Below, one piece after another: positions 1,931-38,402 of a stretch of 64,000 nt of DNA. Numbering within the stretch: the first letter of the stretch is position 1; each line of letters begins with the position of its first letter. The position numbers and the translations under genes were made by a program. Source of the stretch: a virus. Below the pieces are notes generated by a model, which saw only the letters and a list, made by a program, of their open reading frames with translations, made no database searches and was not told the DNA's origin. The DNA lies in IMG/VR virus record IMGVR_UViG_3300007722_000005, positions 1 to 64,000 of that record; one strand, written 5' to 3'.

Positions 1931-2191
1931 CTACGCGCGATAAATCACCGCGTGCGTCGCGTCGCAGCGACGCGTCGCTGATGCAACACAACTTGGCGAT
2001 GCATTGTTTGACCTGCGCGGGCCGCGATACCAAACACGCATGCCGAGTGCGCGCATTGCCGGCCGCAGCACTGTCTCAATCTTGTTGAACATGGCGATCG
2101 GAATTCGGCCAGACACGCCCGAGTTGCCGCGCGTACTCGGCCACACAGTAACACACTGATCGACCACAACTTGTGCTGTATTCTTGTCCAT
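1931..2191 (-). CDS. Hypothetical early protein
   Basis: SD AGGAG and promoter at 2215-2243 upstream. Confidence 0.6.
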   Translation of the reverse strand: MDKNTAQVVVDQCVTVWPSTRGNSGVSGRIPIAMFNKIETVLRPAMRALGMRVWYRGPRRSNNASPSCVASATRRCDATHAVIYRA

Positions 2192-2214
2192 ATTTAATCT
2201 CCTATTGAACGTAT

Positions 2215-2243
2215 ACTATACATCAATCATTTCGAAATGTCAA
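2215..2243 (-). promoter_or_regulatory. Early promoter TTGACA-17-TATAGT
   Basis: Same architecture with TTTCGAAA. Confidence 0.75.
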
Positions 2244-2774
2244 CAGTTATTTGCAGAATTCTGCATGCAGCTTTTTCATGCTTTTCCTTTTTTTCGTGCC
2301 GGCATTGCGAACATCTGATCATCGATGATCCTCATCTTCGTTGCATAAAACGTGTCATTCTTCTGCCACAGCTTCCGACGGACCTTCTTCATAGGATACT
2401 CTTTGACGAGAACGTCACCATCCCAATATGACCCTAACGCTTCCATGTTAGATCTCCTCTGCAATTAATACAACCATTATATTATTATTAGGCAACTTCG
2501 ACAACGGCGTTTTATTGCCACATTTCGAAATTATACGCCGTTGTGCAATCGATCTATTCGTTGCATAATATAGTTATTGGTTCGATCAGCAATGCTGGGG
2601 ATGGACGGCGAGGGTGGCCGCACGTTACGTCTCCGGCGAAACTGTCCGCAGGGGAATACTCCGCGCATTGACGTTAATTTGCAAATTGACCAATACGGTA
2701 ACATTTCGAAATAAAGTGACCTTCTCGGCCACTTTTAAATTATATAAATACCTCATAAACCCGCCGGAGAAACA

Positions 2775-4718: not shown

Positions 4719-4961
4719 TTAGCCTGTAGATGTTGTATAATCCCACACTATGTACGTACCATATTCAGGATGTCCGTGAATCCGCATCAGATCACCGTAT
4801 GTATCAAACACTGAGACGCTCCGAATGGCGGTCAACCACTGGATGACACATTTTCCTGTGTCGAATACTACCCCTTGAAATTGAGGTTGATCTGGAGCGT
4901 TCTTCTGATCAGCAGTGTGCGACTCAGGAACGAGTGGGCGATATGCAGTGAATGTTTTCAT
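4719..4961 (-). CDS. Hypothetical protein
   Basis: Tightly packed ORF in operon. Confidence 0.6.
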   Translation of the reverse strand: MKTFTAYRPLVPESHTADQKNAPDQPQFQGVVFDTGKCVIQWLTAIRSVSVFDTYGDLMRIHGHPEYGTYIVWDYTTSTG

Positions 4962-6121
4962 TTAGATACAGTAAGTAAGTAATTGTTGTTGATAATTTTC
5001 CACGATAGTGGTTGTTTCGTTCCTCTATCATACCACTTTGTTTGTTTCAAGACAACACCTTCACGAATAGTATGCCGTAGGCTCGGGCCATCAGCGAGTT
5101 CGAAAGCTTTTTCAAGAACTATGTCTCGATTTGGCATCTCCCCACAAAGAGAACTCAACGGAAAGTCGTTGTGTAGCACAGGGATGTGCTCAATGATGTT
5201 CTGGTCACAATGCTGCAACAAAGCCTCAACAAAATGACGGCGGGCCTGTGGAAGGAGGTAGTCCATTGTGTCAATATTGTACACGTCGTAAATGAAGATC
5301 TTCAACCGATCGAGCCCTTCGTGATTACCTTCAACACCAGGCCCCATCAGCTCCCCCTGAATCGCGACGTTGACACAATATGGTTGCTCACCGTCCTGGT
5401 AATCAGGTGAGATCTGTTTGTTGTAGCAGTGTTTGCGGAGAGCGTCGAATATCTTTGAGTCTATTGCGGTCTTCACGTAACAGCTGCCGGCGACGTTTCC
5501 GTCAATAACCAACTCTTGATTTCTCGAGCAGACACCAATACTACCATTATGGTAATATATTGTGATGCTACGCCCCTCAAGTTTTGTTGTCACTTCGTAT
5601 TGGATACGATGTGGAAAACCAATAGCATCATCGATCAGATATCCAGTGATGTTCTGAACGCGCTCTTGGTCTGTCTTCGGAATGAAGTCTGGGAACGATC
5701 CTTTTGTCTCACCCATTCCTGTCGCGACAGGCTCCCACTTCTGAATGTTCAACCATTCAGAAGCGTCTTCACCCTCTACCAAAGCCTCTACCAAAGGAAT
5801 CCAGCATCCCGATTGTTCAATACAACTCGCAACAGATAGAATGAGGCCTTGCGAAATCTGTCCGCGCAGTTTGATTGTTTTCAACTTTGCTCCAGGAATA
5901 CCGTTGTACTCCTTCGGCACTGCTCCCTTCGAAAGGAACGGAGCTATTGTATGAGGAATCCAGCTGTCAATCTCGCAATAGACGATTTCATCTCCGACAT
6001 TGAATTCACCTTTCTTGACGACAGACTGCCATCCGTCGATGATCGCAAGCTCAATCAGGTCGGCGCCTTCGATTGGACGGAGGTCGGCAATCTTACGAAT
6101 TGTTGCTAGTTTTCTTTCCAT
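4958..6121 (-). CDS. RNA ligase, Rnl2/DRB0094 family with N-terminal OB domain
   Basis: RKLATIRKI N-terminus, motif I TKLEG, QGEL, REGVV, WKII. Confidence 0.85.
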   Translation of the reverse strand: MERKLATIRKIADLRPIEGADLIELAIIDGWQSVVKKGEFNVGDEIVYCEIDSWIPHTIAPFLSKGAVPKEYNGIPGAKLKTIKLRGQISQGLILSVASCIEQSGCWIPLVEALVEGEDASEWLNIQKWEPVATGMGETKGSFPDFIPKTDQERVQNITGYLIDDAIGFPHRIQYEVTTKLEGRSITIYYHNGSIGVCSRNQELVIDGNVAGSCYVKTAIDSKIFDALRKHCYNKQISPDYQDGEQPYCVNVAIQGELMGPGVEGNHEGLDRLKIFIYDVYNIDTMDYLLPQARRHFVEALLQHCDQNIIEHIPVLHNDFPLSSLCGEMPNRDIVLEKAFELADGPSLRHTIREGVVLKQTKWYDRGTKQPLSWKIINNNYLLTVSK

Positions 6122-6213
6122 TATCGGTTCTCTTTGATTTCTGTTATGAATGATTCCGTGTCGATGGGAGGCGAACGTCTTTCGGTTCAAGAAACTTGGG
6201 TTGGGTCATATAG

Positions 6214-29333: not shown

Positions 29334-29777
29334 TTAAATGCTAGGGGCGCCACAATTTGTGCAACCTCCTGCCATACTCCTCTGTTCGTTTTCGCAGCAC
29401 AGGCCTTTGTAGTAACCACTCTCGTTGCCATCGTAAATAATTACGTGAGTAGTTATCCGCGCAATTGAAACCATGTGTTTAGTTCCTTTACTTTCCTTGA
29501 TGTTTGGGTGAAAGGCAACAACCAAATCTGGCTTCTCGGCCAACATCGCCTTGTTACGAATTGGACCTGCTGCATTTTTGTATTTCTTCCAATCCGCTGG
29601 AAATTTCTTGGCGGGGATTCCATTATGGTCCGCCCAGTTGCGCGACATAATGTCAACGCCGCGGCACTCCCCCTCAATCAGCAGGGTGAAGTTGTTGACT
29701 TTGTGGAGTTCGTCGAGATGCAGCTCGAGATACTCACTATCAATCCAATCTCTATCGCCACACACAAGAACTTTCAT
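29334..29777 (-). CDS. SLOG/YspA-family (DUF2493-like) protein
   Basis: VLVCGDR, IEG..RGVD, ADW..Y..AAGPIRN, SKGTKHM. Confidence 0.8.
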   Translation of the reverse strand: MKVLVCGDRDWIDSEYLELHLDELHKVNNFTLLIEGECRGVDIMSRNWADHNGIPAKKFPADWKKYKNAAGPIRNKAMLAEKPDLVVAFHPNIKESKGTKHMVSIARITTHVIIYDGNESGYYKGLCCENEQRSMAGGCTNCGAPSI

Positions 29778-29778
29778 A

Positions 29779-30040
29779 ATTTTAACCTCTCTATAGCCGG
29801 GGTTCTGTTCTATCTGCTAATTCGTCTGTGAGTTTCCTCACCCTCGTCAGGTTTCAATCTGAGTCATAGGTGCACCAACCCGATATCTCGGCGAGTCACG
29901 TCATCGATATCTGTTTGGCTTGCTGCCGCTGATGTCATCGTACAAGCGACTTTCGTCTCCGATGTAGCATTTACAGCTGCTCTTGGCAGCCCCGAACTTC
30001 CTCGACAACAAGTTGCCGCTAGCAGTCGAGAGGTTAAAAT
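29779..30040 (-). ncRNA. rnpB: RNase P RNA, compact form
   Basis: 13-bp terminal P1; P2 CTGCTAG/TTAGCAG; CR-I GAGGAAGTTCGGGGCT; CR-V ACAGAACCCCGGCTATA complementary for P4. Confidence 0.85.
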
Positions 30041-30041
30041 T

Positions 30042-30611
30042 TTAAACTCTTTTGGCGCCGTGACCGTCGATAGGTTTGAACGTTTTCTTTTTCATGATCT
30101 GTTTAACATGATCGTAACTGATTGGGCAATAGTTGTGATTATCGACACCCACATCAATAGATAATGAATTTGGATCGTCTGGTAGATTCCCGTGCGAATG
30201 GCCATATAACTGCCACGAACCGTGGTGCGATTTGTTCCACACCTTCATTGCATAGTGCATAAGAATGATAAGCTGCTGACCTTTGCTTTTTGTTTTGTCA
30301 GTAACTTTTAATTCAAAATAATCCTTGACCCACACAAAATGTTTTGCAACACACGGGTCCATTTTGCTGTCGTGATTGCCACGAACTAAGAACTTGCGGC
30401 CGTTCAATCTTTTGATGACCGCTTCGGCTTCATGGGGGCGAAGAAATGCAAAATCACCAACAAAATAAACTTCGTCATCAAATTGAACATGATCGTTGTG
30501 GTTAGTGATCAATGTCTCGTTCATATTATCAACATTCGCGAATGGCCGATTGCAAAATTTTATTATATTTGCGTGACCGTAATGTTGATCGCTTGTGAAC
30601 CATATTGTCAT
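30042..30611 (-). CDS. Calcineurin-like metallophosphoesterase
   Basis: SDQHYGH, GD, GNHD, GHSH. Confidence 0.9.
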   Translation of the reverse strand: MTIWFTSDQHYGHANIIKFCNRPFANVDNMNETLITNHNDHVQFDDEVYFVGDFAFLRPHEAEAVIKRLNGRKFLVRGNHDSKMDPCVAKHFVWVKDYFELKVTDKTKSKGQQLIILMHYAMKVWNKSHHGSWQLYGHSHGNLPDDPNSLSIDVGVDNHNYCPISYDHVKQIMKKKTFKPIDGHGAKRV

Positions 30612-30659: not shown

Positions 30660-30754
30660 TGGTGCCCCCGCCCGGATTCGAACCGAGATCATGCGCCAAT
30701 CTAGCGCCAATGCCGAGGTATAAGCTCGGAGTTTTACCGTTAAACTACAGGGGT
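30660..30754 (-). tRNA. tRNA-Ile(UAU) with long extra arm
   Basis: CCGAG CT TAT AC CTCGG; T-loop TTCGAAT; encoded CCA. Confidence 0.8.
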
Positions 30755-30756
30755 TT

Positions 30757-30831
30757 TGGAGCTCCAGGACAGAGTTGAACTGTCTTTCGCACTTTACCAA
30801 AGTGCAGTAATAACCATTATACTACAGGAGC
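30757..30831 (-). tRNA. tRNA-Thr(GGU)
   Basis: Cloverleaf, CCA. Confidence 0.85.
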
Positions 30832-30908
30832 GTTAATAAGTCCAGCCTAAAACTTTCATCAATTTCGTTTTGACTCTAATGCTGGTGCGTTAATTATCCA
30901 CATAATTT

Positions 30909-30981
30909 TGGCACCCCATGAAGGAATTCAACCTCCGCAATCAAGGGTAGAAACCTCGACGCCGACATCATCGGATGGGGC
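30909..30981 (-). tRNA. Atypical tRNA-Arg(UCU), mini D-arm
   Basis: 7-bp acceptor, CCGA TGATG TCGG D-hairpin, loop TT TCT AC, CCA. Confidence 0.65.
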
Positions 30982-31484
30982 ATTGTTAAAAGTTAAAATC
31001 CTGTTATTTGTACAGCTATAAAAAATATCCTATAGCAACTATAACGAACCACTCTGTCAGTGAAAATTGGTAACACCAACTCGGCAGCTTGAATGCAATA
31101 TATTCAAATATTTTGTCAAACATTTTAGTAGTGCCTTTCGTTTGGATGAAGTCGCCAAAATAACCGGCTCGCTTTCTCTGGCGCTTTGTGGTAAACATCA
31201 AACCAATATTCGTGCACAATGTCTAGCTTCTGGTTCTTCTGCTTGTGCCCGATCCAATAGGGGTTCGAATGGCCACGAGGGCGCCACGTTTTTTCGTGGT
31301 AATTCCTGCGTAGTTGCCTGTCGAGGAATCTATACCCCCACATATCAGACGTTCAGGTGCTTCTTGAGAGATTCGAGCTCGCGCTGTTTCCGAGCAACAT
31401 ACTTCTCATTATCAGGGTAAGCTATTTTGAAACGCTCAAGTGCACCTTTACGACGTTCCTGACGACGAATAAAACTATTCTTGA

Positions 31485-31874
31485 TCATTTTAGCTGGTCC
31501 TCCATCTCATTAAATGCTCGACTAAGTTGTACCGATGCTATCTGAACAAGTTTTGGATCCTTGAATCCAAAATTATCAGGTAGATTTAATGTTATCACGT
31601 GTTTGTCGGCAAGGTCGAATTCGCTCGAAGTTTCCTCGAAATTCTCTTTGTTGACAAACACAACAGCATCGGACCAATGAATCAGAACGTCGTCAGCGTG
31701 GATCAACGCAAATGTTTTTGTTGACCCTGCTGCACGTGTGTTGAAGTTGAATGGATCGTTTGATAGAATCCAAGCGACGGTCGGGGAGCGTAGCAGTCCA
31801 GCTGAGCACACACAAAGAACCTTTAACGAAGTTCCTTGGTGAGAATTAGTAGAATTGTGTTTTCTGTTATTGAT
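31485..31874 (-). CDS. LMW protein-tyrosine-phosphatase-like protein (probable AUC start)
   Basis: VLCVCSAGLLRSPT CX5R loop; SD AAGGAG followed by ATC. Confidence 0.75.
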   Translation of the reverse strand: MNNRKHNSTNSHQGTSLKVLCVCSAGLLRSPTVAWILSNDPFNFNTRAAGSTKTFALIHADDVLIHWSDAVVFVNKENFEETSSEFDLADKHVITLNLPDNFGFKDPKLVQIASVQLSRAFNEMEDQLK

Positions 31875-31968
31875 GATGAACTCCTTTTTGATGAAGGTTT
31901 CGTAACTGTTTGAATATGACTATTATACGTTTTTTTTACAAAAGGTCAACAATTTTAAATTTCAAAAG

Positions 31969-32043
31969 TGGAGCAGGTGGCGGGGATCGAACCCGCGACA
32001 TTCACGTTGGCAACGTGGCATTCTTCCGCTGAACTACACCTGC
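31969..32043 (-). tRNA. tRNA-Gly(GCC)
   Basis: Cloverleaf, U73, CCA. Confidence 0.9.
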
Positions 32044-32077
32044 GTTATTACATTTCTTCGTGTGTGCTTACGCTTGT

Positions 32078-32155
32078 TGGTACCCCCGGTCGGATTCGAA
32101 CCGACACTGTGCAGGTTTTGAATCTGCTGCCTCCTACCAATTGCGCTACGGGGGC
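32078..32155 (-). tRNA. tRNA-Leu(CAA), short variable loop
   Basis: Cloverleaf, CCA. Confidence 0.85.
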
Positions 32156-32167
32156 ATAGTTTTTGAT

Positions 32168-32238
32168 TGGTACCCTGAGTGAGATTCGAACTCACAAAAG
32201 CTGGTTTAGGAAACCTGCTCCCGTCCATTGGTCAGGAT
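32168..32238 (-). tRNA. Atypical tRNA-Arg(CCU), reduced D-arm
   Basis: Loop TT CCT AA; normal T-arm; CCA. Confidence 0.65.
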
Positions 32239-32239
32239 G

Positions 32240-32632
32240 TTATGTATGTATTATTGCTGAGGCGATATACTTCTGTATCTTAGCAGGTACGTTATGTGCT
32301 TTATTCATTACATCGGTCATTGTGAACTCGCTCGTGATTCCTTCTCGTGCGAAACTATATAGCGTTCCACCTGGGTGCTCAGTAGCGAGTATCTTCAACA
32401 TACCGGCATCAGTAGCTGGAGCGTTGACTGCTGTTTTCTTGATCTTTACCGCCTGTGCAATGCCCATTGTATCTCGGAGCATAGACATCACCTCAGAGGG
32501 ATCAGCATTGCGCATTACAGACAACACTTTACCGACGAGGACGTTGATGGCCTTATCTTTTCCAGACTTTACTTGCTCAACGGTCTTTTGATTGTCTGCA
32601 ATGACTTGGGTAATTAGTTCTTCTATTTTCAT
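32240..32632 (-). CDS. Protein with GatB/YqeY C-terminal-like segment
   Basis: VEQVKSGKDKAINVLVGKVL...ADPSEV. Confidence 0.55.
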   Translation of the reverse strand: MKIEELITQVIADNQKTVEQVKSGKDKAINVLVGKVLSVMRNADPSEVMSMLRDTMGIAQAVKIKKTAVNAPATDAGMLKILATEHPGGTLYSFAREGITSEFTMTDVMNKAHNVPAKIQKYIASAIIHT

Positions 32633-32640
32633 ATGAATTT

Positions 32641-32730
32641 TGGCGGAGAGTAGAGTAGTCGAAACCCATTCCATTCCTGGAACCAACTGTTTTCGAGGCA
32701 GTGTCGTCAATCCCTGACAATTTACTCTCC
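32641..32730 (-). tRNA. (8/4) tRNA-Ser(CGA)
   Basis: 8-bp acceptor GGAGAGTA/TACTCTCC, 4-bp T-stem, long variable arm. Confidence 0.8.
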
Positions 32731-32907
32731 ATTAAGTATTTTAGCGTCTTTCTCGCTGAGAGGAGTGCAACAATCTACCTTCAACTCTTCGTATGGAAGC
32801 TTTCTGAATATACGATCCCAACCTTCACGATAAGCATTGGTCGGTTGTTTCGTTTTCAGTTCGTCGCCAGTGATGTCGTTTTTTGATGTCATAATCTATT
32901 TGTGTAG

Positions 32908-32983
32908 TGGTAGTGACCGTGGGAGTCGAACCCACCTATTCTTCCTTATGAGGGAAGCACATAAGCCGCTCTGTCAGGTCACT
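32908..32983 (-). tRNA. tRNA with CAU anticodon (Met or Ile2)
   Basis: CTTCC CT CAT AA GGAAG; CCA. Confidence 0.8.
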
Positions 32984-32988
32984 GCTGT

Positions 32989-33062
32989 TGGTGGTTCCAA
33001 GAGGAATCGGACCTCTATATTCGCCATGTCAAAGCGACACTCTACCATTGAGTTATGGAACC
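32989..33062 (-). tRNA. tRNA-Val(GAC)
   Basis: Cloverleaf, CCA. Confidence 0.8.
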
Positions 33063-33069
33063 TAATTTA

Positions 33070-33145
33070 TGGGGTGATCGACGAGATTCGAACTCGCGCT
33101 ATCTGATTCACAATCAGAGGTGCTGACCTTTACACTACGACCACC
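33070..33145 (-). tRNA. tRNA-His(GUG)
   Basis: G-1:C73, cloverleaf. Confidence 0.9.
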
Positions 33146-33151
33146 ATTGTT

Positions 33152-33224
33152 TGGTAGCGGCCGAGGGTAACGATCCCTCTCCCATCGCAGGTTATGAGCC
33201 TGGAGTCTACCACTAGAAGCCGCA
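33152..33224 (-). tRNA. Atypical tRNA-Met(CAU), mini D-arm, 1:72 mismatch
   Basis: TCTA GTGG TAGA D-hairpin; CAGG CT CAT AA CCTG; CCA. Confidence 0.65.
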
Positions 33225-33246
33225 ATAGTCTTCTTTACTTCAATTC

Positions 33247-33323
33247 TGGTGCGCGGGCAGAGAATCGAACTCTGCAAATCCCACTTGTAAGGAGGGTGGT
33301 GTCACCAGCTACGCTCCCCGCGC
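33247..33323 (-). tRNA. tRNA-Val(UAC)
   Basis: Loop CT TAC AA; CCA. Confidence 0.75.
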
Positions 33324-33379
33324 TTTGCGTGAAGTTATAAGGTTGTCAAGCCAACCTTCTCAAATCATGAGATGAAAAT

Positions 33380-33456
33380 TGGTCGGAGTACAAGGATTCG
33401 AACCTTGGACCCTCTGCTCCCAAAGCAGATGCGCTGCCAGACTGCGCTACACTCCG
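33380..33456 (-). tRNA. tRNA-Pro(UGG)
   Basis: Canonical cloverleaf. Confidence 0.92.
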
Positions 33457-33461
33457 AAACT

Positions 33462-33535
33462 TGGTGCCCCTTGACGGAATCGAACCGCCGTAAGCTGCTT
33501 ACAAAACAGCCGTAATACCATTATACTAAAGGGGC
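33462..33535 (-). tRNA. tRNA-Thr(UGU)
   Basis: Canonical cloverleaf. Confidence 0.9.
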
Positions 33536-33555
33536 AAATTATATTAATTACTTTT

Positions 33556-33590
33556 CTAAGTCAACTACTCGACCGCTGAGCTATCGAGTA
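33556..33590 (-). pseudogene. Remnant 5' half of a tRNA
   Basis: TAGCTCAGCGGTCGAGTA D-arm plus GTTGACT, no 3' half. Confidence 0.45.
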
Positions 33591-33607
33591 ATAATTCTAT
33601 TTATAGT

Positions 33608-33804
33608 CTACGTTTCTTCCATTCCTGACGCTCCAGAGAGGCTTACACAATTTGGATCCTCTGCAATTACCGCAACAAACCGCATGTGGATGCTTCGCAA
33701 CGTTGCTGCAATCGAAAGAGCGTCGCTCAAATCGCTGGCAACGTGGCCTTGTGTTACACTATCAAGCGTTGTCCAATATACTTTATATTCAGCTTTGTTC
33801 ATAT
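33608..33804 (-). CDS. Hypothetical protein (start probably MNKAEY)
   Basis: KVYWT...FVAVIAEDPNCV. Confidence 0.5.
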
Positions 33805-34045
33805 GTTTTACTTGTGACACTATCGTTTAAGCCCGCTCAGGCCCGCACCCTCGAGGTATGTTGACCATATTTGCAAGACTCCTATGTAGCTTTCATAGGC
33901 GTAACGCCACAAGTAAAACATTCGGCTCAGTACACCGAGAGGTATGATGAGTATCCTTTATGGTGTAGGGGACGTCCAGGCACATCACCGCGGTACACCA
34001 TTTCATCTTCTTTTGTTGCACTAAGGCGAAGAATCTTCAGAAGGT
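33803..34045 (-). ncRNA. Candidate structured RNA
   Basis: 20-bp helix 33803-33822/33902-33921 with G-U pairs; further hairpins; own promoter upstream. Confidence 0.5.
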
Positions 34046-34119
34046 AACCTTTTCAACAATGTCTATTATACTACCATTTAAAGAATAGTCAACACTTTTC
34101 TTTTTATTGTTAATTCGGC
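34046..34119. repeat. 74-bp direct repeat (copy 1) containing minus-strand promoter TTGACT-16-TATAAT
   Basis: Copy 2 at 35548-35621, one mismatch. Confidence 0.9.
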
Positions 34120-34710
34120 TGTGTACTTCTCTTTAATTCTGTGAAGCTGTCCCGTTGCCCACTCCAAATTCCTGATGTATTGGTGTTGTTCAGAAGTTTG
34201 TTGAACACCAACAACGGTGTTTAACCGTCGGTCAAAAAACTCTTCTGGCATGTTGTCGTGTGTTATTATAGTTCCTCTTGTAGGGAAGAATTGAACATAT
34301 CTGCGCATGAATTCATTCCACTGTTCAATATGTTCAACAGGAGCTGTAAAATTAAATAGTTGAATTTCTGTTGATATCCTGAAACCAAACTGTTTTGCAA
34401 GAAGGAAGCTGAGTCCTGCTTGAACCATATCTTTTTCGACAACGAAAATTTCGTGCCGTGTTGTTTTCATCACCTTTTTGTACCACGCAATTGATTGTGG
34501 GAATCGGCAAAGATGATGGCCATGCAACTTTATAACAGTGTTTCCATTGTTCAAGCGATGAAGTAACCAATATTTTCGAAATACTGATGCAAAATTATCA
34601 TCGTAACGAGGTGCAAACGGCTCATAAATTTTGTTTTGTCGTTTGCACGAATGAAAAATAGCGCTACCATCTGTGCGGCGGTGGCTGTAAATTATTACTG
34701 GGTTTTTCAT
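34078..34710 (-). CDS. Sulfotransferase/P-loop-like hypothetical protein under a late promoter
   Basis: SHRRTDGSA...YEPF; TATAAATA at about 34734-34741. Confidence 0.5.
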   Translation of the reverse strand: MKNPVIIYSHRRTDGSAIFHSCKRQNKIYEPFAPRYDDNFASVFRKYWLLHRLNNGNTVIKLHGHHLCRFPQSIAWYKKVMKTTRHEIFVVEKDMVQAGLSFLLAKQFGFRISTEIQLFNFTAPVEHIEQWNEFMRRYVQFFPTRGTIITHDNMPEEFFDRRLNTVVGVQQTSEQHQYIRNLEWATGQLHRIKEKYTAELTIKRKVLTIL

Positions 34711-34742
34711 AACACATCCTTTTTGAGATGTATTATTTATAA

Positions 34743-34819
34743 TGGTGCGAGTCATGGGAGTCGAACCCACACTGACCAGGTTTTAAATCTGGCGCCTCTT
34801 CCAATTGGGCTACACTCGC
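34743..34819 (-). tRNA. tRNA-Leu(UAA), short variable loop
   Basis: Cloverleaf, CCA. Confidence 0.85.
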
Positions 34820-34825
34820 GAAACT

Positions 34826-34900
34826 TGGAGCCCTGTGACAGATTCGAGCTGTCCTCTGAACTTTACGAAAGTTCTGTGTCGCCGTCTACACTTACGGGGC
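34826..34900 (-). tRNA. tRNA-Thr(CGU)
   Basis: Cloverleaf, CCA. Confidence 0.8.
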
Positions 34901-34906
34901 AAAACT

Positions 34907-34982
34907 TGGTGCGTCCCACAGGAATCGAACCTGTTTCAATGGCTCTTCAAACCACCGCTATGACCACATCAGCTAGAGACGC
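34907..34982 (-). tRNA. tRNA-Phe(GAA)
   Basis: Cloverleaf, CCA. Confidence 0.85.
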
Positions 34983-35018
34983 AAATATCTCCGTTACACT
35001 ATTTGTAGCTATTAAATT

Positions 35019-35092
35019 TGGAGACTCGAGACAGAGTTGAACTGTCATCTTCGGGTTTGCAATCCGAGGCACGGCCGTTATACCACCGAGTC
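35019..35092 (-). tRNA. tRNA-Cys(GCA)
   Basis: Cloverleaf, U73, CCA. Confidence 0.85.
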
Positions 35093-35098
35093 ATTGTT

Positions 35099-35175
35099 TG
35101 GTGCGCGAGGTGGGACTCGAACCCACAGAACCTACCCTCTCAAGATAGTATGTTTACCAATTTCATCACAAGCGC
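35099..35175 (-). tRNA. tRNA-Leu(GAG), short variable loop
   Basis: Cloverleaf, CCA. Confidence 0.85.
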
Positions 35176-35184
35176 GTTGTTAGT

Positions 35185-35264
35185 TGGTGGAGTGAAAGAG
35201 AGTCGAACTCTAAGGCTACTAGTATGAGCGACCGCAAGGTCGCCGCCGCGATCCGAACCACCCC
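35185..35264 (-). ncRNA. Ala-identity tRNA-like RNA resembling an isolated tmRNA tRNA-like domain
   Basis: G3:U70, A73, CCA, T-loop TTCGACT, stemless D region TTCGGATC. Confidence 0.55.
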
Positions 35265-35269
35265 GTATT

Positions 35270-35342
35270 TGGTACCCCATGAAGGAATTTAACCCTCGCA
35301 ACTGAGCTTCGAAGGCTCTGCGCCGACATCATCGGATGGGAT
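35270..35342 (-). tRNA. Atypical tRNA-Arg(UCG), mini D-arm
   Basis: Same CCGATGATGTCGG hairpin as 30909; loop CT TCG AA. Confidence 0.65.
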
Positions 35343-35345
35343 ATT

Positions 35346-35417
35346 TGGCAACGGTGCACGGAGTCAAACCGTGTTGTATTTCCTTCAGAGGGAAAACCAG
35401 CTTCAAGCTTCACCGCA
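35346..35417 (-). tRNA. Atypical tRNA-Gln(CUG), mini D-arm
   Basis: AGCT TGA AGCT hairpin; TTTCC CT CTG AA GGAAA; CCA. Confidence 0.65.
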
Positions 35418-35425
35418 ATTGTTCT

Positions 35426-35502
35426 TGGTGCCCTAGAGGGGACTCGAACCCCTAAAATCTACATTCTAAGTGTAGCACGTATGCCAATTCCGTCACCAGG
35501 GC
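35426..35502 (-). tRNA. tRNA-Leu(UAG), short variable loop
   Basis: Cloverleaf, CCA. Confidence 0.85.
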
Positions 35503-35547
35503 AATATTATTTAGATGTTATTAGTGTTGGTGTTTCCACGTTCACTC

Positions 35548-35621
35548 AACCTTTTCAACAATGTCTATTGTACTACCATTTAAAGAATAGTCAACACTTT
35601 TCTTTTTATTGTTAATTCGGC
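35548..35621. repeat. 74-bp direct repeat (copy 2), internal array promoter
   Basis: Matches 34046-34119. Confidence 0.9.
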
Positions 35622-35642
35622 CTTGCGGCTCTCGCGTTGTAC

Positions 35643-35719
35643 TGGTGGGGGTAGAGGGATTCGAACCCACAATGACCCAGATTCAAAGTCTGGTACGCTT
35701 CCAGTCGCGTGTTACCCCT
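35643..35719 (-). tRNA. tRNA-Gln(UUG)
   Basis: CCAGA CT TTG AA TCTGG; CCA. Confidence 0.8.
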
Positions 35720-35725
35720 ATTGTT

Positions 35726-35799
35726 TGGTACTCCGGGAAGGAATCAAACCTTCGTGGGCCCCTTATCAAGAGGCTATCTTATCATTAGATGACCGGAGC
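35726..35799 (-). tRNA. tRNA-Ile(GAU)
   Basis: Cloverleaf, CCA. Confidence 0.8.
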
Positions 35800-35805
35800 A
35801 TATTT

Positions 35806-35895
35806 TGGCGGAAAGCAGAGCGATCGAAGCCCAAACCCTTTCAGGTTCCAACCGATTAGCAATCGGCGCCGCACTCCATGCGCAATTTACTTTCC
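35806..35895 (-). tRNA. (8/4) tRNA-Ser(GCU)
   Basis: 8-bp acceptor, 4-bp T-stem, long variable arm. Confidence 0.8.
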
Positions 35896-35900
35896 AAATA

Positions 35901-35976
35901 TGGTCTTTCAGGTGAGACTCGAACTCACGAAATCTTCGCCCCAAACGAAGTGGTATAGCCGCTAACCGACTGAAAG
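35901..35976 (-). tRNA. tRNA-Pro(UGG), second copy
   Basis: CTTCG TT TGG GG CGAAG; CCA. Confidence 0.8.
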
Positions 35977-35984
35977 ATATTCAT

Positions 35985-36140
35985 TCCGTGTTTTCTATAG
36001 CACGGAGTATAACTTACCGGAGCCCATATAACCGTCATCAAGTGACTCGGTCTTATGAACTCCGACGTAGATTTTATTATTCACGAGTTAGTGATTTGAT
36101 AGAGGCAATATTTCATGCCTCTATCGATAATAGATCTACT
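35985..36140 (-). ncRNA. Candidate three-domain structured RNA
   Basis: Helices GTAGATCTATTAT/ATAATAAAATCTAC, GATAGAGGCA/TGCCTCTATC, GGAGTTCATA/TATGGGCTCC, TCCGTG/CACGGA. Confidence 0.5.
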
Positions 36141-36145
36141 ATGTG

Positions 36146-36217
36146 CTCCATCTCCTGGGATCGAACCAGGGACCTAGCGATTAACAGTCGCTTGCACTAC
36201 CGCTGTGCTAAGATGGA
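36146..36217 (-). tRNA. tRNA-Asn(GUU), CCA not encoded
   Basis: Canonical cloverleaf ending G73-CAC. Confidence 0.85.
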
Positions 36218-36223
36218 ATAACT

Positions 36224-36318
36224 TGGCTCCGCAGAGAGGCTTCGAACCTCTATATTGCGCCTTTCGGCCTTTACGTCTCATTAACAGTGAGGTCTCTTAC
36301 CAATTAGAGTACCGCGGA
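36224..36318 (-). tRNA. tRNA-Asn(GUU) with long extra arm
   Basis: Loop CT GTT AA; about 24-nt variable region with GCC GAAA GGC; CCA. Confidence 0.75.
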
Positions 36319-36369
36319 ATAAATCTTTATAATTCATATATCTCGTTGGAAATACATCAATTATAACGA

Positions 36370-36448
36370 TGGTGGGAGCGCCGGGATTCGAACCCGAATC
36401 TATCAGATTAAAAGTCTGTTGTGTTAAATCCGTTGACACCACACTCCC
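36370..36448 (-). tRNA. tRNA-Lys(UUU)
   Basis: Cloverleaf, CCA. Confidence 0.85.
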
Positions 36449-36518
36449 ATTTGTTTACTACGTTTACCATCTTTCGATTTTCGTTTCATATCAAGATCCT
36501 TTTTTGATAAATATTAAC

Positions 36519-36677
36519 ATGCAAAAACTACAAAATTTTAAAGCCTTCTTTCAGCGCAATAAAAAGCAGGCTGAAGCCGAACCCCACACTGGCCCCGATC
36601 GTCGGAAAGGACCACGTCGCACTGTGACGAAGATTAAAACAAACTATACCGCGTGGCATGATCGCCGTGCTGCATAA
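36519..36677 (+). CDS. Small basic protein antisense to the tRNA array
   Basis: ATAAATA late-like promoter just upstream of ATG; MQKLQNFKAFF N-terminus. Confidence 0.45.
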   Translation: MQKLQNFKAFFQRNKKQAEAEPHTGPDRRKGPRRTVTKIKTNYTAWHDRRAA

Positions 36678-36680
36678 TGC

Positions 36681-36761
36681 CAAGAGTGTCCTAGGCCACT
36701 AGACGATCTCGCACACGCCAGTAGCGTGGGTCGAGTGGGATTTGAACCCACGTCTCTCTTG
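36681..36761 (-). ncRNA. Circularly permuted tRNA-like RNA (YrlA-like module) A
   Basis: Order T-arm, closed acceptor-like hairpin, D-arm; closing stem CAAGAG/CTCTTG. Confidence 0.65.
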
Positions 36762-36764
36762 TTC

Positions 36765-36840
36765 TGGCGCCGAGGACGGGGATTGAACCCGCCTGAGAAT
36801 GATCGACAGTCATCCTGTATCCCCAGATAGCTACCTCGGC
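36765..36840 (-). tRNA. tRNA-Asp(GUC), atypical D-arm
   Basis: Loop CT GTC GA; G73; CCA. Confidence 0.7.
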
Positions 36841-36871
36841 AAATATGGAGTTGCGTAAACGCAACATTGTT

Positions 36872-36999
36872 TGGGACGCGATGGTGAGGTTTTCACTCAC
36901 GACGATTTACAAGATCGCTATCAGCTTTACCCCTCATGGTTGTAACCCCACTACTCATAAAGCATTCCTGTGGACTCGGTCACCACAGCTTCACCGCGT
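36872..36999 (-). ncRNA. Oversized (128 nt) CCA-ending tRNA-like RNA
   Basis: 8-bp acceptor ACGCGGTG/CATCGCGT, T-like arm GTGAG/CTCAC, three internal arms. Confidence 0.65.
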
Positions 37000-37000
37000 T

Positions 37001-37074
37001 TGGAGCACCTGCGCGGATTCGAACCGCGTTCAATAGTTTGGAAAACTATGTCCTCTCCCAGGAGCGACAGATGC
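37001..37074 (-). tRNA. tRNA-Gly(UCC), atypical D-arm
   Basis: ATAGT TT TCC AA ACTAT; CCA. Confidence 0.75.
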
Positions 37075-37108
37075 ATTAGTTGAATGTCGACTATTTATAA
37101 TATTGTTT

Positions 37109-37183
37109 TGGCGGCCCTGCACGGAATCGAACCGCGTTGGCTGGTTTTGGAGACCAGTGCATCACCTTTCATGCTTCAGGGAC
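37109..37183 (-). tRNA. tRNA-Trp(CCA)
   Basis: CTGGT CT CCA AA ACCAG; G73; CCA. Confidence 0.85.
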
Positions 37184-37194
37184 ATAATTTAATT

Positions 37195-37283
37195 TGAGCT
37201 AAGACAAAAAGGACTCGAACCTTCGCTTTCGCCAGAACCAGTTGTGCACCTACGTCTATAAACGTTTCCACAACCTTCTCAGC
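37195..37283 (-). ncRNA. T-arm-containing tRNA-like RNA without CCA
   Basis: GCTGAGA/TCTTAGC closing stem; GAAGG TTCGAGT CCTTT; long irregular hairpin. Confidence 0.45.
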
Positions 37284-37351
37284 AACATGCAAACCCTACA
37301 TTATATCAAATTCACACAACAATTATAGTTGCAAGTGTGAACCTCAAAACT

Positions 37352-37435
37352 TGGTGGTTGTGGTAGGATTCGAACCTACTCAGCTAGTGGGCCACTGATT
37401 TACAGTCAGCTTATCTCTCCAAGGAATGCACAACC
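37352..37435 (-). tRNA. tRNA-Tyr(GUA)
   Basis: Loop CT GTA AA, long variable arm, CCA. Confidence 0.8.
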
Positions 37436-37452
37436 ATTGTAATACGAAATCT

Positions 37453-37526
37453 TGGTGGTTCTAGAAGGTAACGATCCTTCGTCGCACGATTATCAGTCGT
37501 GTGCTCTACCTTTGAGCTACAGAACC
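37453..37526 (-). tRNA. tRNA-Ile(GAU), second copy
   Basis: Cloverleaf, CCA. Confidence 0.85.
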
Positions 37527-37532
37527 TAAAAG

Positions 37533-37603
37533 GCGGGAGTGTCCTACCACTATACGATTACCCTCACGAGGGTAAGTGGAAATCGAATCCACGTCTCTTT
37601 CTT
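37533..37603 (-). ncRNA. Circularly permuted tRNA-like RNA (YrlA-like module) B
   Basis: GTGGA TTCGATT TCCAC, TTACCCT CGTG AGGGTAA, TCGTATAGTGGTAGGACA. Confidence 0.6.
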
Positions 37604-37607
37604 TACT

Positions 37608-37682
37608 TGGCGGTCCCAAGGGGTAACGATCCCCTTCTTCGACAGTGACAGTGTCGTGTGCGTCCATGAACACTTTGGAACC
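37608..37682 (-). tRNA. tRNA-Asp(GUC)
   Basis: Cloverleaf, CCA. Confidence 0.85.
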
Positions 37683-37694
37683 GAATGCAATAAC

Positions 37695-37786
37695 TGGCGG
37701 AGAGCAGAGGAGTCGAACCCCATCCCCTTTCGGGGAACCTAGTTTTCAAGGCTAGTCGACACACCAACGCGTCTGCATTACTCTCC
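37695..37786 (-). tRNA. (8/4) tRNA-Ser(UGA)
   Basis: 8-bp acceptor, 4-bp T-stem, long variable arm. Confidence 0.8.
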
Positions 37787-37794
37787 ATTAATAC

Positions 37795-37869
37795 TGGTGC
37801 ACCCGAGGAGAATCGAACTCCCTTTCGCAGATTGAAAGTCTGCTGTCCTAACCGGTAGACGACGGATGC
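37795..37869 (-). tRNA. tRNA-Glu(UUC)
   Basis: Cloverleaf, CCA. Confidence 0.9.
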
Positions 37870-37950
37870 ATAATTCGCAGGCGTATTCCGGAGCAGCTCA
37901 CGCAAGGTGAGTGCCCATTGAGTCATCAACTCAACTTACGCCATTGATCT

Positions 37951-38025
37951 TGGTGGGCCCTGTGGGATTTTAACCCACATCGTCTCGGGTAAGAGCCGAG
38001 TGTAATAACGTTATACGAAAGACCC
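37951..38025 (-). tRNA. tRNA-Lys(CUU)
   Basis: Cloverleaf, CCA. Confidence 0.8.
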
Positions 38026-38031
38026 ATAATT

Positions 38032-38105
38032 TGGAGCGGGATAGGAGAATCGAACTCCTTTAACTAGTTTGGAAGACTAGGACACAACCAATATGCCAAT
38101 CCCGC
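38032..38105 (-). tRNA. tRNA-Gly(UCC), second copy
   Basis: Cloverleaf, CCA. Confidence 0.85.
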
Positions 38106-38111
38106 GTTGTT

Positions 38112-38186
38112 TGGTGGAGGCCGAGGAAATCGAATCCTTCTAGTCAGAATCCTTGCAAAGGATACCCGTAACCCATTACTGCCCCC
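38112..38186 (-). tRNA. Atypical tRNA-Ala(UGC), mini D-arm
   Basis: G3:U70; GTAA TGGG TTAC hairpin; loop TT TGC AA; CCA. Confidence 0.7.
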
Positions 38187-38402
38187 AATGTTCTTAATTA
38201 ACAGCAATTTTGCAACTATCCAAAAATGCTTTCAATTAAGGAGTAGGCCGTCCCCACTCAGATCTCTTTTACTCTTCCTGTTTACGCCAGGAATTTCATC
38301 CAGACCGCCGCCAAATTGGAGATGTTTAAAGTGCCTCCGCGAATCGCGTTTCCGTACACTTTACTTCAAAAGAACGATTACTTCTTTGTTACTAGATTGA
38401 CT

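Follow-up and report, generated by a model that had tools for sequence, protein, structure and literature searches.

Among ribozymes, RNase P RNA belongs to the few that are universal, and its gene has, to our knowledge, been regarded as exclusive to cells and organelles. A description of a virus- or phage-encoded RNase P RNA was not found in the full-text literature, including RNase P reviews of 2016 and 2024, a scope that stops at subscription-only papers. The closest described system is the bacterial type A RNA (rnpB, the M1 RNA of E. coli; RF00010), which is cellular and usually 340–420 nt long (PMC4919922). The phage RNA described here is viral, comprises 264 nt and has the type A order of elements, i.e. 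P1-P2-P3, CR-I, P5, S-domain, P15-P16/17, P18, CR-IV, P2', CR-V and P1'. Furthermore, both RNAs contain a P4 with a bulged U, a GGU in L15 for the CCA end of the tRNA and a GNRA loop on P18. In contrast to type A, the phage RNA is devoid of P8/P9 and P13/P14, its P10-P12 region is a stub and an extra hairpin is inserted between P15 and P18.

A natural RNA that keeps the catalytic domain and has nearly lost the specificity (S-) domain has been reported for Pyrobaculum (type T/P; Lai et al. 2010, as cited in PMC4919922). As far as this citation goes, it works like a 'C-domain only' enzyme, and it shares with the phage RNA the natural origin, the retained catalytic domain and the loss of most of the S-domain. 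However, the Pyrobaculum RNA is archaeal, cellular and associated with archaeal proteins, whereas the phage RNA clearly descends from type A and has a small conserved S-domain stub. Cleavage by the C-domain at reduced rate and affinity is likewise cited for isolated C-domain constructs and for the Mycoplasma fermentans RNA (Siegel et al. 1996, cited in PMC4919922). These may be taken as a biochemical precedent for an activity of the phage RNA, but, in the terms of that citation, they are laboratory deletions or reduced cellular genes, whereas the phage RNA represents a natural lineage maintained by phages. Within phages, the Theta (HDV-like) ribozymes are encoded inside tRNA clusters and have been proposed to process phage tRNA precursors (PMC10879173). 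These are small, self-cleaving and act in cis on 3' trailers, in contrast to RNase P, which is unrelated in fold and acts in trans on 5' leaders.

The window, i.e. the whole stretch of 64,000 nt analysed (positions 1 to 64,000 of the IMG/VR virus record IMGVR_UViG_3300007722_000005), contains the RNase P RNA gene at 29778-30041 on the minus strand, 264 nt with the full P1. The position of about 260 nt at 29779-30040 given in an earlier note on this DNA was thereby borne out. All elements below are on the minus strand, and RNA position i corresponds to window coordinate 30042-i. The model RF00010 (RNaseP_bact_a) matches in full length (model positions 1-367) at 29778-30037 with 63.5 bits. In a permissive Rfam scan of 29600-30250, the covariance-model search that the earlier note had proposed, this was the only match listed (E 5.4e-19 in a 651-nt search), and across the whole 92-kb virus record RF00010 was found at the same place with an E of 1.8e-20. 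The score is below the RF00010 gathering cut-off of 100 bits, and a scan of the window at gathering thresholds reported 28 tRNAs only and no RNase P RNA. Routine annotation therefore misses this RNA. The minus strand of the RNA folds better than 200 of 200 shuffles (z = -3.1), and it occupies the exact gap between the stop of the ORF at 30042-30611 (-) and the ATG of the ORF at 29334-29777 (-).

Judged from its sequence, the catalytic half of the RNA is complete, comprising P1-P5, CR-I/IV/V, J5/15, P15 with the CCA-binding GGU, P16/17 and P18. P1 is a helix of 14 bp, all canonical, between 30028-30041 (RNA 1-14) and 29778-29791 (RNA 251-264), the latter strand containing a GAGAGG at 29786-29791. 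It is followed by P2, which pairs 30019-30025 with 29814-29820 (RNA 17-23 and 222-228), and by the P3 hairpin at 30003-30018 (RNA 24-39) with 6 bp and a CUUG loop. The conserved regions all align to the consensus: CR-I, GAGGAAGUUCGGGGC, at 29989-30003 (RNA 39-53), CR-IV, AGACGAAU, after P18 at 29820-29827 (RNA 215-222), and CR-V, ACAGAACCCCGGCUAU, at 29793-29808 (RNA 234-249). Here, CR-I harbors the 5' strand of P4 (29990-29998) with the bulged U at 29995 (U47) and CR-V the 3' strand (29795-29802), so that AGU[U]CGGGG pairs with CCCCG-GCU (RNA 44-46 and 48-52 with 240-247).

P5 connects 29985-29989 with 29923-29927 (RNA 53-57 and 115-119), is anchored on both sides and covaries. Between P5 and P15 lies J5/15, CAA, with the conserved adenosines. 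P15 is formed by GCCA at 29916-29919 and UGGU at 29874-29877 (RNA 123-126 and 165-168), and within 29874-29919 the junction J15/16, AACA(G), leads to the P16/17 hairpin at 29882-29911 (RNA 131-160) and to the L15 motif GGGU at 29878-29881 (RNA 161-164), the motif binding the 3'-CCA of the tRNA. The P18 hairpin, GUGAG-GAAA-CUCAC, is located at 29828-29841 (RNA 201-214) and carries the GAAA loop. In the window copy, the P6 pseudoknot between J5/7 and the P16/17 loop (L17) is weak, with 3 + 2 bp and a bulge, no better than in shuffles; many phage relatives form 7-9 bp. P15-P17 with the GGU, P18 and, though weak in the window copy, P6 make a bacterial type A descent of the phage RNA clearly the indicated one.

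The window RNA belongs to a family. A pattern consisting of CR-I, 135-226 nt and CR-V identified 45 loci in IMG/VR, and RF00010 gave full-model matches of 221-348 nt in 28 of the pattern-positive records. Eleven phage homologues exceed the RF00010 cut-off (102-173 bits), and the remaining matches score 27-85 bits. Among the carriers are phage genomes of 94, 170, 358 and 498 kb that are complete by direct terminal repeats, and a metagenome scan added about 13 further contigs with a phage mini RNase P RNA. Of 22 loci, 16 have the RNA in or beside a tRNA array of the same strand, and at least nine have a tRNA boundary no more than about 20 nt away from the RNA. The same pattern, applied to one genome per species of 185,579 bacterial and archaeal genomes, produced two hits, both false. 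In INPHARED, comprising 50,697 GenBank phage records, blastn of the RNA with and without flanks, a search that is weak for this RNA, gave no match and hence no example from a cultured phage. A blastn search with a phage homologue of 167 bits returned 47-nt CR-I stretches only, in a Salmonella genome record and two Acinetobacter phage records, and at these stretches of the Acinetobacter records nothing is annotated.

A covariance model of the family, called R1, was built from four relatives and the window copy. Within the fetched loci it yielded 43 matches, 34 of them distinct, with E <= 4.5e-8 and all covering model positions 1-249; the 249.5 bits of the window RNA are high by construction since R1 was built partly from it. 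Seven pattern matches (L081, L086, L087, L088, L090, L096 and L097) had no R1 match and were rejected as RNase P RNA. The nearest syntenic relative, L098, was the one locus obtained in a search with the protein encoded downstream of the window RNA. Its RNA is absent from the DNA-pattern matches yet matched by R1, and is located at 2182-2560 (+), 379 nt, in a gap between protein genes. On its 3' side a homologue of the C-terminal tail of the window SLOG protein and an ExoX-like-C gene are present, as in the window.

Two of the loci attracted attention for other RNAs. In addition to a mini RNase P RNA (57 bits) and many tRNAs, L079, a 214-kb contig from a human-skin metagenome, carries a tmRNA (117 bits), a small SRP RNA and a tRNA-Sec-like gene. 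The contig seems to represent a huge phage whose repertoire of translation-related RNAs is unusually complete. In L095, a GOLLD RNA truncated by the contig end has its 3' part at positions 1-202 (51 bits), next to tRNAs and a mini RNase P RNA.

The pairing was analysed across this family. The P4 pseudoknot is outside both the Rfam model and R1 and therefore serves as an independent test of the catalytic core. P4 consists of 3 bp, the bulged U and 5 bp in the window RNA as well as in each of the 24 distinct phage homologues of the first collection. Its pair A67-U359 occurs as AU, GC or CG, G68-C358 as GC, UG, UA or CG and C71-G356 as CG, GC or AU; these three positions were free, not fixed, in the search pattern. 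L098 adds a further compensatory change from G-C to A-U (CAGAG/CUCUG). The earlier note's statement that P1-P4 and the catalytic conserved regions are present thus holds, both by the RF00010 match and by P4 in 24 of 24 distinct relatives.

With 11 relatives aligned by plain MAFFT, the structure derived from the window has 70.1% of its cells paired versus 56.5% in shuffles, none of 500 shuffles reaching the observed value, and its covariation score is 0.32 versus 0.14 for shuffled and <=0.12 for slid structures. In the R1-fitted alignment of the 34 distinct sequences, 87.4% of the cells are paired versus 59.2% in shuffles, and the covariation score is 0.48 versus 0.13 (shuffled) and <=0.07 (slid). 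Across these 34 sequences, pairing amounts to 86% for P1, where 10 of 10 modelled pairs changed on both sides, 89% for P2, 88% for P3, 99.6% for P4, which was not modelled, 99% for the three outer and 79% for the two inner pairs of P5, and 99% for both P15 (4 of 4 pairs covary) and P18 (5 of 5).

A sub-cut-off Rfam score, a largely missing S-domain and a weak P6 in the window copy are also what one would expect of a decaying host rnpB fragment that was picked up by chance, or of a chance resemblance. This explanation is extremely improbable, since the match spans the full model with an E of 5e-19, and the compensatory changes in P1, P2, P3, P4, P5, P15 and P18 over 34 distinct sequences contradict it. 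Moreover, in complete phage genomes the copies are fitted precisely between genes or between tRNAs, a related phage has the RNA in the same gene neighbourhood, and matching cellular copies were not found in the genomes searched. The evidence instead marks 29778-30041 (-) as a true homologue of the bacterial type A RNA that is maintained by selection. The core proposal of the earlier note, a minimal RNase P RNA encoded by a phage and having a shrunken S-domain, is supported; its catalytic domain is complete and it belongs to a conserved phage family.

A conserved family of phage-encoded RNase P RNAs would add a catalytic RNA to the translation-related functions of viruses. It would furthermore supply natural 'minimal' bacterial-type RNase P RNAs of 220-265 nt, bearing on the need for the S-domain, and such compact RNAs would offer ribozymes for tRNA processing and for RNA-targeting tools. 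Since most copies of the family are below the Rfam cut-off, they are invisible to standard annotation.

The most obvious difference from cellular RNAs is the S-domain. The remnant enclosed by P5 in the window RNA (29928-29984) comprises only 57 nt, in agreement with the roughly 60 nt noticed before. In the RF00010 alignment, 18 nt stand in for about 110 model positions (P10-P14), and neither in this alignment nor in the P5 interval were P8/P9 or P13/P14 found. The remnant starts with J5/7, whose P6 strand is at 29978-29982, followed by P7, GCUG/CAGC, which pairs 29974-29977 with 29928-29931 (RNA 65-68 and 111-114) and shows a pairing of 50-78% in few sequences, i.e. it is not conserved. After a linker of 9 nt, a P10/11-like stem, CAUCG/CGAUG, is formed by 29960-29964 and 29936-29940 (RNA 78-82 and 102-106). 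Inside this stem are a GA junction, a P12-like hairpin, GAC-GAAA-GUC, at 29948-29957 and a 7-nt junction, GCUUGUA, at 29941-29947. Among the relatives that have these elements, the P10/11-like stem pairs in 85% and the P12-like hairpin in 100%.

P10-P12 is thus a stub of about 29 nt in the window RNA, with J11/12 cut to about 2 nt. The segments GGAGACGAA and GCUUGUA, which flank the 3-bp hairpin, resemble CR-II and CR-III of larger phage homologues, of which they would be degenerate traces only. In L098, the P12-like hairpin has grown to about 150 nt. P12 is commonly expanded in RNase P RNAs. Due to this expansion and to the CR-II- and CR-III-like flanking letters, the stub is read as a collapsed P10/11-P12 module. 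Across the family, three sizes of the S-domain inside P5 are observed, a full-size class of about 160 nt, a class of about 100 nt without P13/14 and a mini class of 42-60 nt including the window RNA. The mini class consists of one covarying stem enclosing GA, a hairpin of 3-5 bp and a 7-nt junction, often G-Y-U-N-N-N-A; the automatic parse of this junction chose wrong stems in about half of the sequences, and the clearly parsed ones were used. The U...A pentanucleotide within the junction is compatible with a T-loop-like turn, and the conserved junction may still touch the tRNA elbow.

The earlier note had explained the shrinkage as a specific adaptation for processing phage tRNAs with remodelled D-arms, which the RNase P of the host would handle poorly. 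The S-domain is indeed the part of the enzyme reading the D/T elbow (PMC4919922), and the odd tRNA-like genes on which this idea depends do exist (e.g. at 30909 and 35270), some of them with altered T-loops. The adaptive link itself found no support in this form. Most tRNAs of the array are canonical, the 28 that pass Rfam in the window included, and S-domains of the same small size are also present in phages with canonical tRNAs (60-75 bits) next to the RNA. Remodelled D-arms are neither needed nor shown to account for a mini S-domain. Furthermore, with classes of about 45-60, 100 and 160 nt, the S-domain seems to have been reduced stepwise across the family rather than fitted to the tRNAs of one phage, and a junction kept in the stub could still contact the elbow. 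We therefore regard this adaptation as unlikely; streamlining of the genome at the cost of a dispensable domain explains the data equally well.

A further peculiarity is the extra hairpin between P15 and P18 at 29842-29870 (RNA 172-200). It is composed of a CC/GG stem, a 3-nt bulge, tandem GA/GA and a distal stem, and the same motif is present in L091, L084, L013 (G002) and L098. Here, the C-stem pairs in 100% and the distal stem in 87.5% of the cases, and the distal stem covaries (UCAG/CUGA, CCGC/GCGG and CCAU/GUGG). The consensus suggests a K-turn-like fold, and as a peripheral element the hairpin is new to RNase P RNAs of the bacterial type. It may also be the reason for the better score that L091 obtains with the class B model. 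One could imagine an orthogonal tRNA-maturing enzyme, in which the stub and the additional K-turn arm together accept D-arm-remodelled tRNAs that are poorly processed by the host enzyme. We consider this doubtful; if true, it would make the private tRNA set of the phage independent of host processing.

With respect to function, the presumed substrates are close by. The tRNA array is located at 30660-38105 (-) and contains 29 genes according to ARAGORN and several non-canonical tRNA-like genes. Its last tRNA ends at 30660, and one gene of 189 aa lies between the array and the RNA, which fits the earlier description of a site just downstream of the array. Of the 28 tRNAs, 27 encode CCA, and a search of the 92-kb record for a CCA-adding enzyme (PF01743) was negative. 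As a promoter-like or terminator-like site of the RNA's own was not found on the minus strand at the RNA, it is likely to be co-transcribed with the tRNA array and the flanking genes.

Unlike the cellular type A RNA, the phage RNA has no cognate rnpA beside it or in the phage records searched. RnpA (PF00825) had no match in the 92-kb record, which is about 51% complete, so that a protein cofactor of the phage could lie in the missing half, and none in five complete or near-complete phage genomes bearing the RNA; the PF00825 control was positive in 10 of 14 genomes. The regions contacted by bacterial RnpA are all retained in the RNA (P2/P3, P15, CR-IV/V), and since no phage copy was found, the RNA would most likely borrow RnpA from the host. 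A bacterial C-domain alone cleaves pre-tRNA with or without RnpA, at lower rate and affinity (PMC4919922). Based on the retained RnpA-contacting regions, the GGU, the J5/15 adenosines, the CCA encoded by 27 of 28 tRNAs and this precedent, we infer catalysis, protein partner and substrates as follows. The RNA would fold into an active ribozyme and cleave the 5' leaders of the phage's own CCA-encoding, polycistronic pre-tRNAs, by which the phage would gain a tRNA-maturing capacity independent of how much host RNA subunit is present and of what becomes of it. That it is a working ribozyme subunit of this kind, with host RnpA as the probable partner, is the reading we consider to have a good chance of being correct.

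The missing phage RnpA together with the retained RnpA-binding elements P2/P3, P15 and CR-IV/V would also fit a decoy, which titrates host RnpA or pre-tRNAs without cleaving and in this way disturbs tRNA maturation of the host. Such a role is very unlikely: dozens of divergent phages conserve features of chemistry and docking, namely P4 with the invariant bulged U, the J5/15 adenosines and the L15 GGU, and the RNA sits among tRNA genes of the phage itself, which need processing.

The protein genes adjoining the RNA directly are both on the minus strand. Upstream, the gene at 30042-30611 encodes a phosphoesterase of 189 aa (phrog_547, E 3e-50), the TAA stop of which abuts the RNA. Downstream, the gene at 29334-29777 encodes a SLOG-family (YspA-like) protein of 147 aa (PF10686, E 2e-16; phrog_289), and its start abuts the RNA as well. 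The ATG of this gene is at 29775-29777, and the GAGAGG in the 3' strand of P1, 8 nt upstream, is its likely ribosome-binding site. This site would be sequestered in the closing helix and removed if the RNA is cut out. The RNA might be thought of as acting mainly in cis, as a leader or processing signal of the SLOG gene, and not as a trans-acting enzyme, in line with its direct contact to the ATG and the sequestered GAGAGG. However, in most relatives the RNA is flanked by tRNAs and not by the SLOG gene, and conservation tracks the RNase P core, not the ORF junction, which renders a mainly cis-acting role highly improbable. In the window copy, unlike in most relatives, tRNAs that would release the ends of the RNA are missing from its flanks.

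Several tRNA genes of this phage are unusual in themselves. Both ARAGORN and Rfam miss tRNA-like genes at 30909-30990, 32168-32250, 35270-35350, 35346-35430 and 38112-38190 (-). These have a 7-bp acceptor stem, an abutting short hairpin that replaces the D-arm, an anticodon arm, a T-arm and an encoded CCA, and some have non-standard T-loops, e.g. UUGAAUU. The tRNA-Ile(UAU) and one tRNA-Asn(GUU), at 30660-30754 and 36224-36318 (-), are 95 nt in length and bear long extra arms, an unusual format for tRNAs of these identities. A tRNA with a CUA anticodon (an amber suppressor, named 'Pyl' by ARAGORN) is present in the window at 55844-55918 (-) and in L098 at 4844-4917.

The predicted genes place this uncultured phage among the T4-like myoviruses, as a distant member. 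Its DNA polymerase, of the gp43 type, shares about 45% identity with cyanomyovirus homologues, and the gene set includes an RNA ligase, NrdA, a DnaB-like helicase and SbcCD. The ligase, at 4958-6190 (-), is T4 Rnl-like (phrog_968, E 3e-75) and suggests tRNA repair against anticodon nucleases of the host, in keeping with the heavy investment of this phage in its own tRNA supply.
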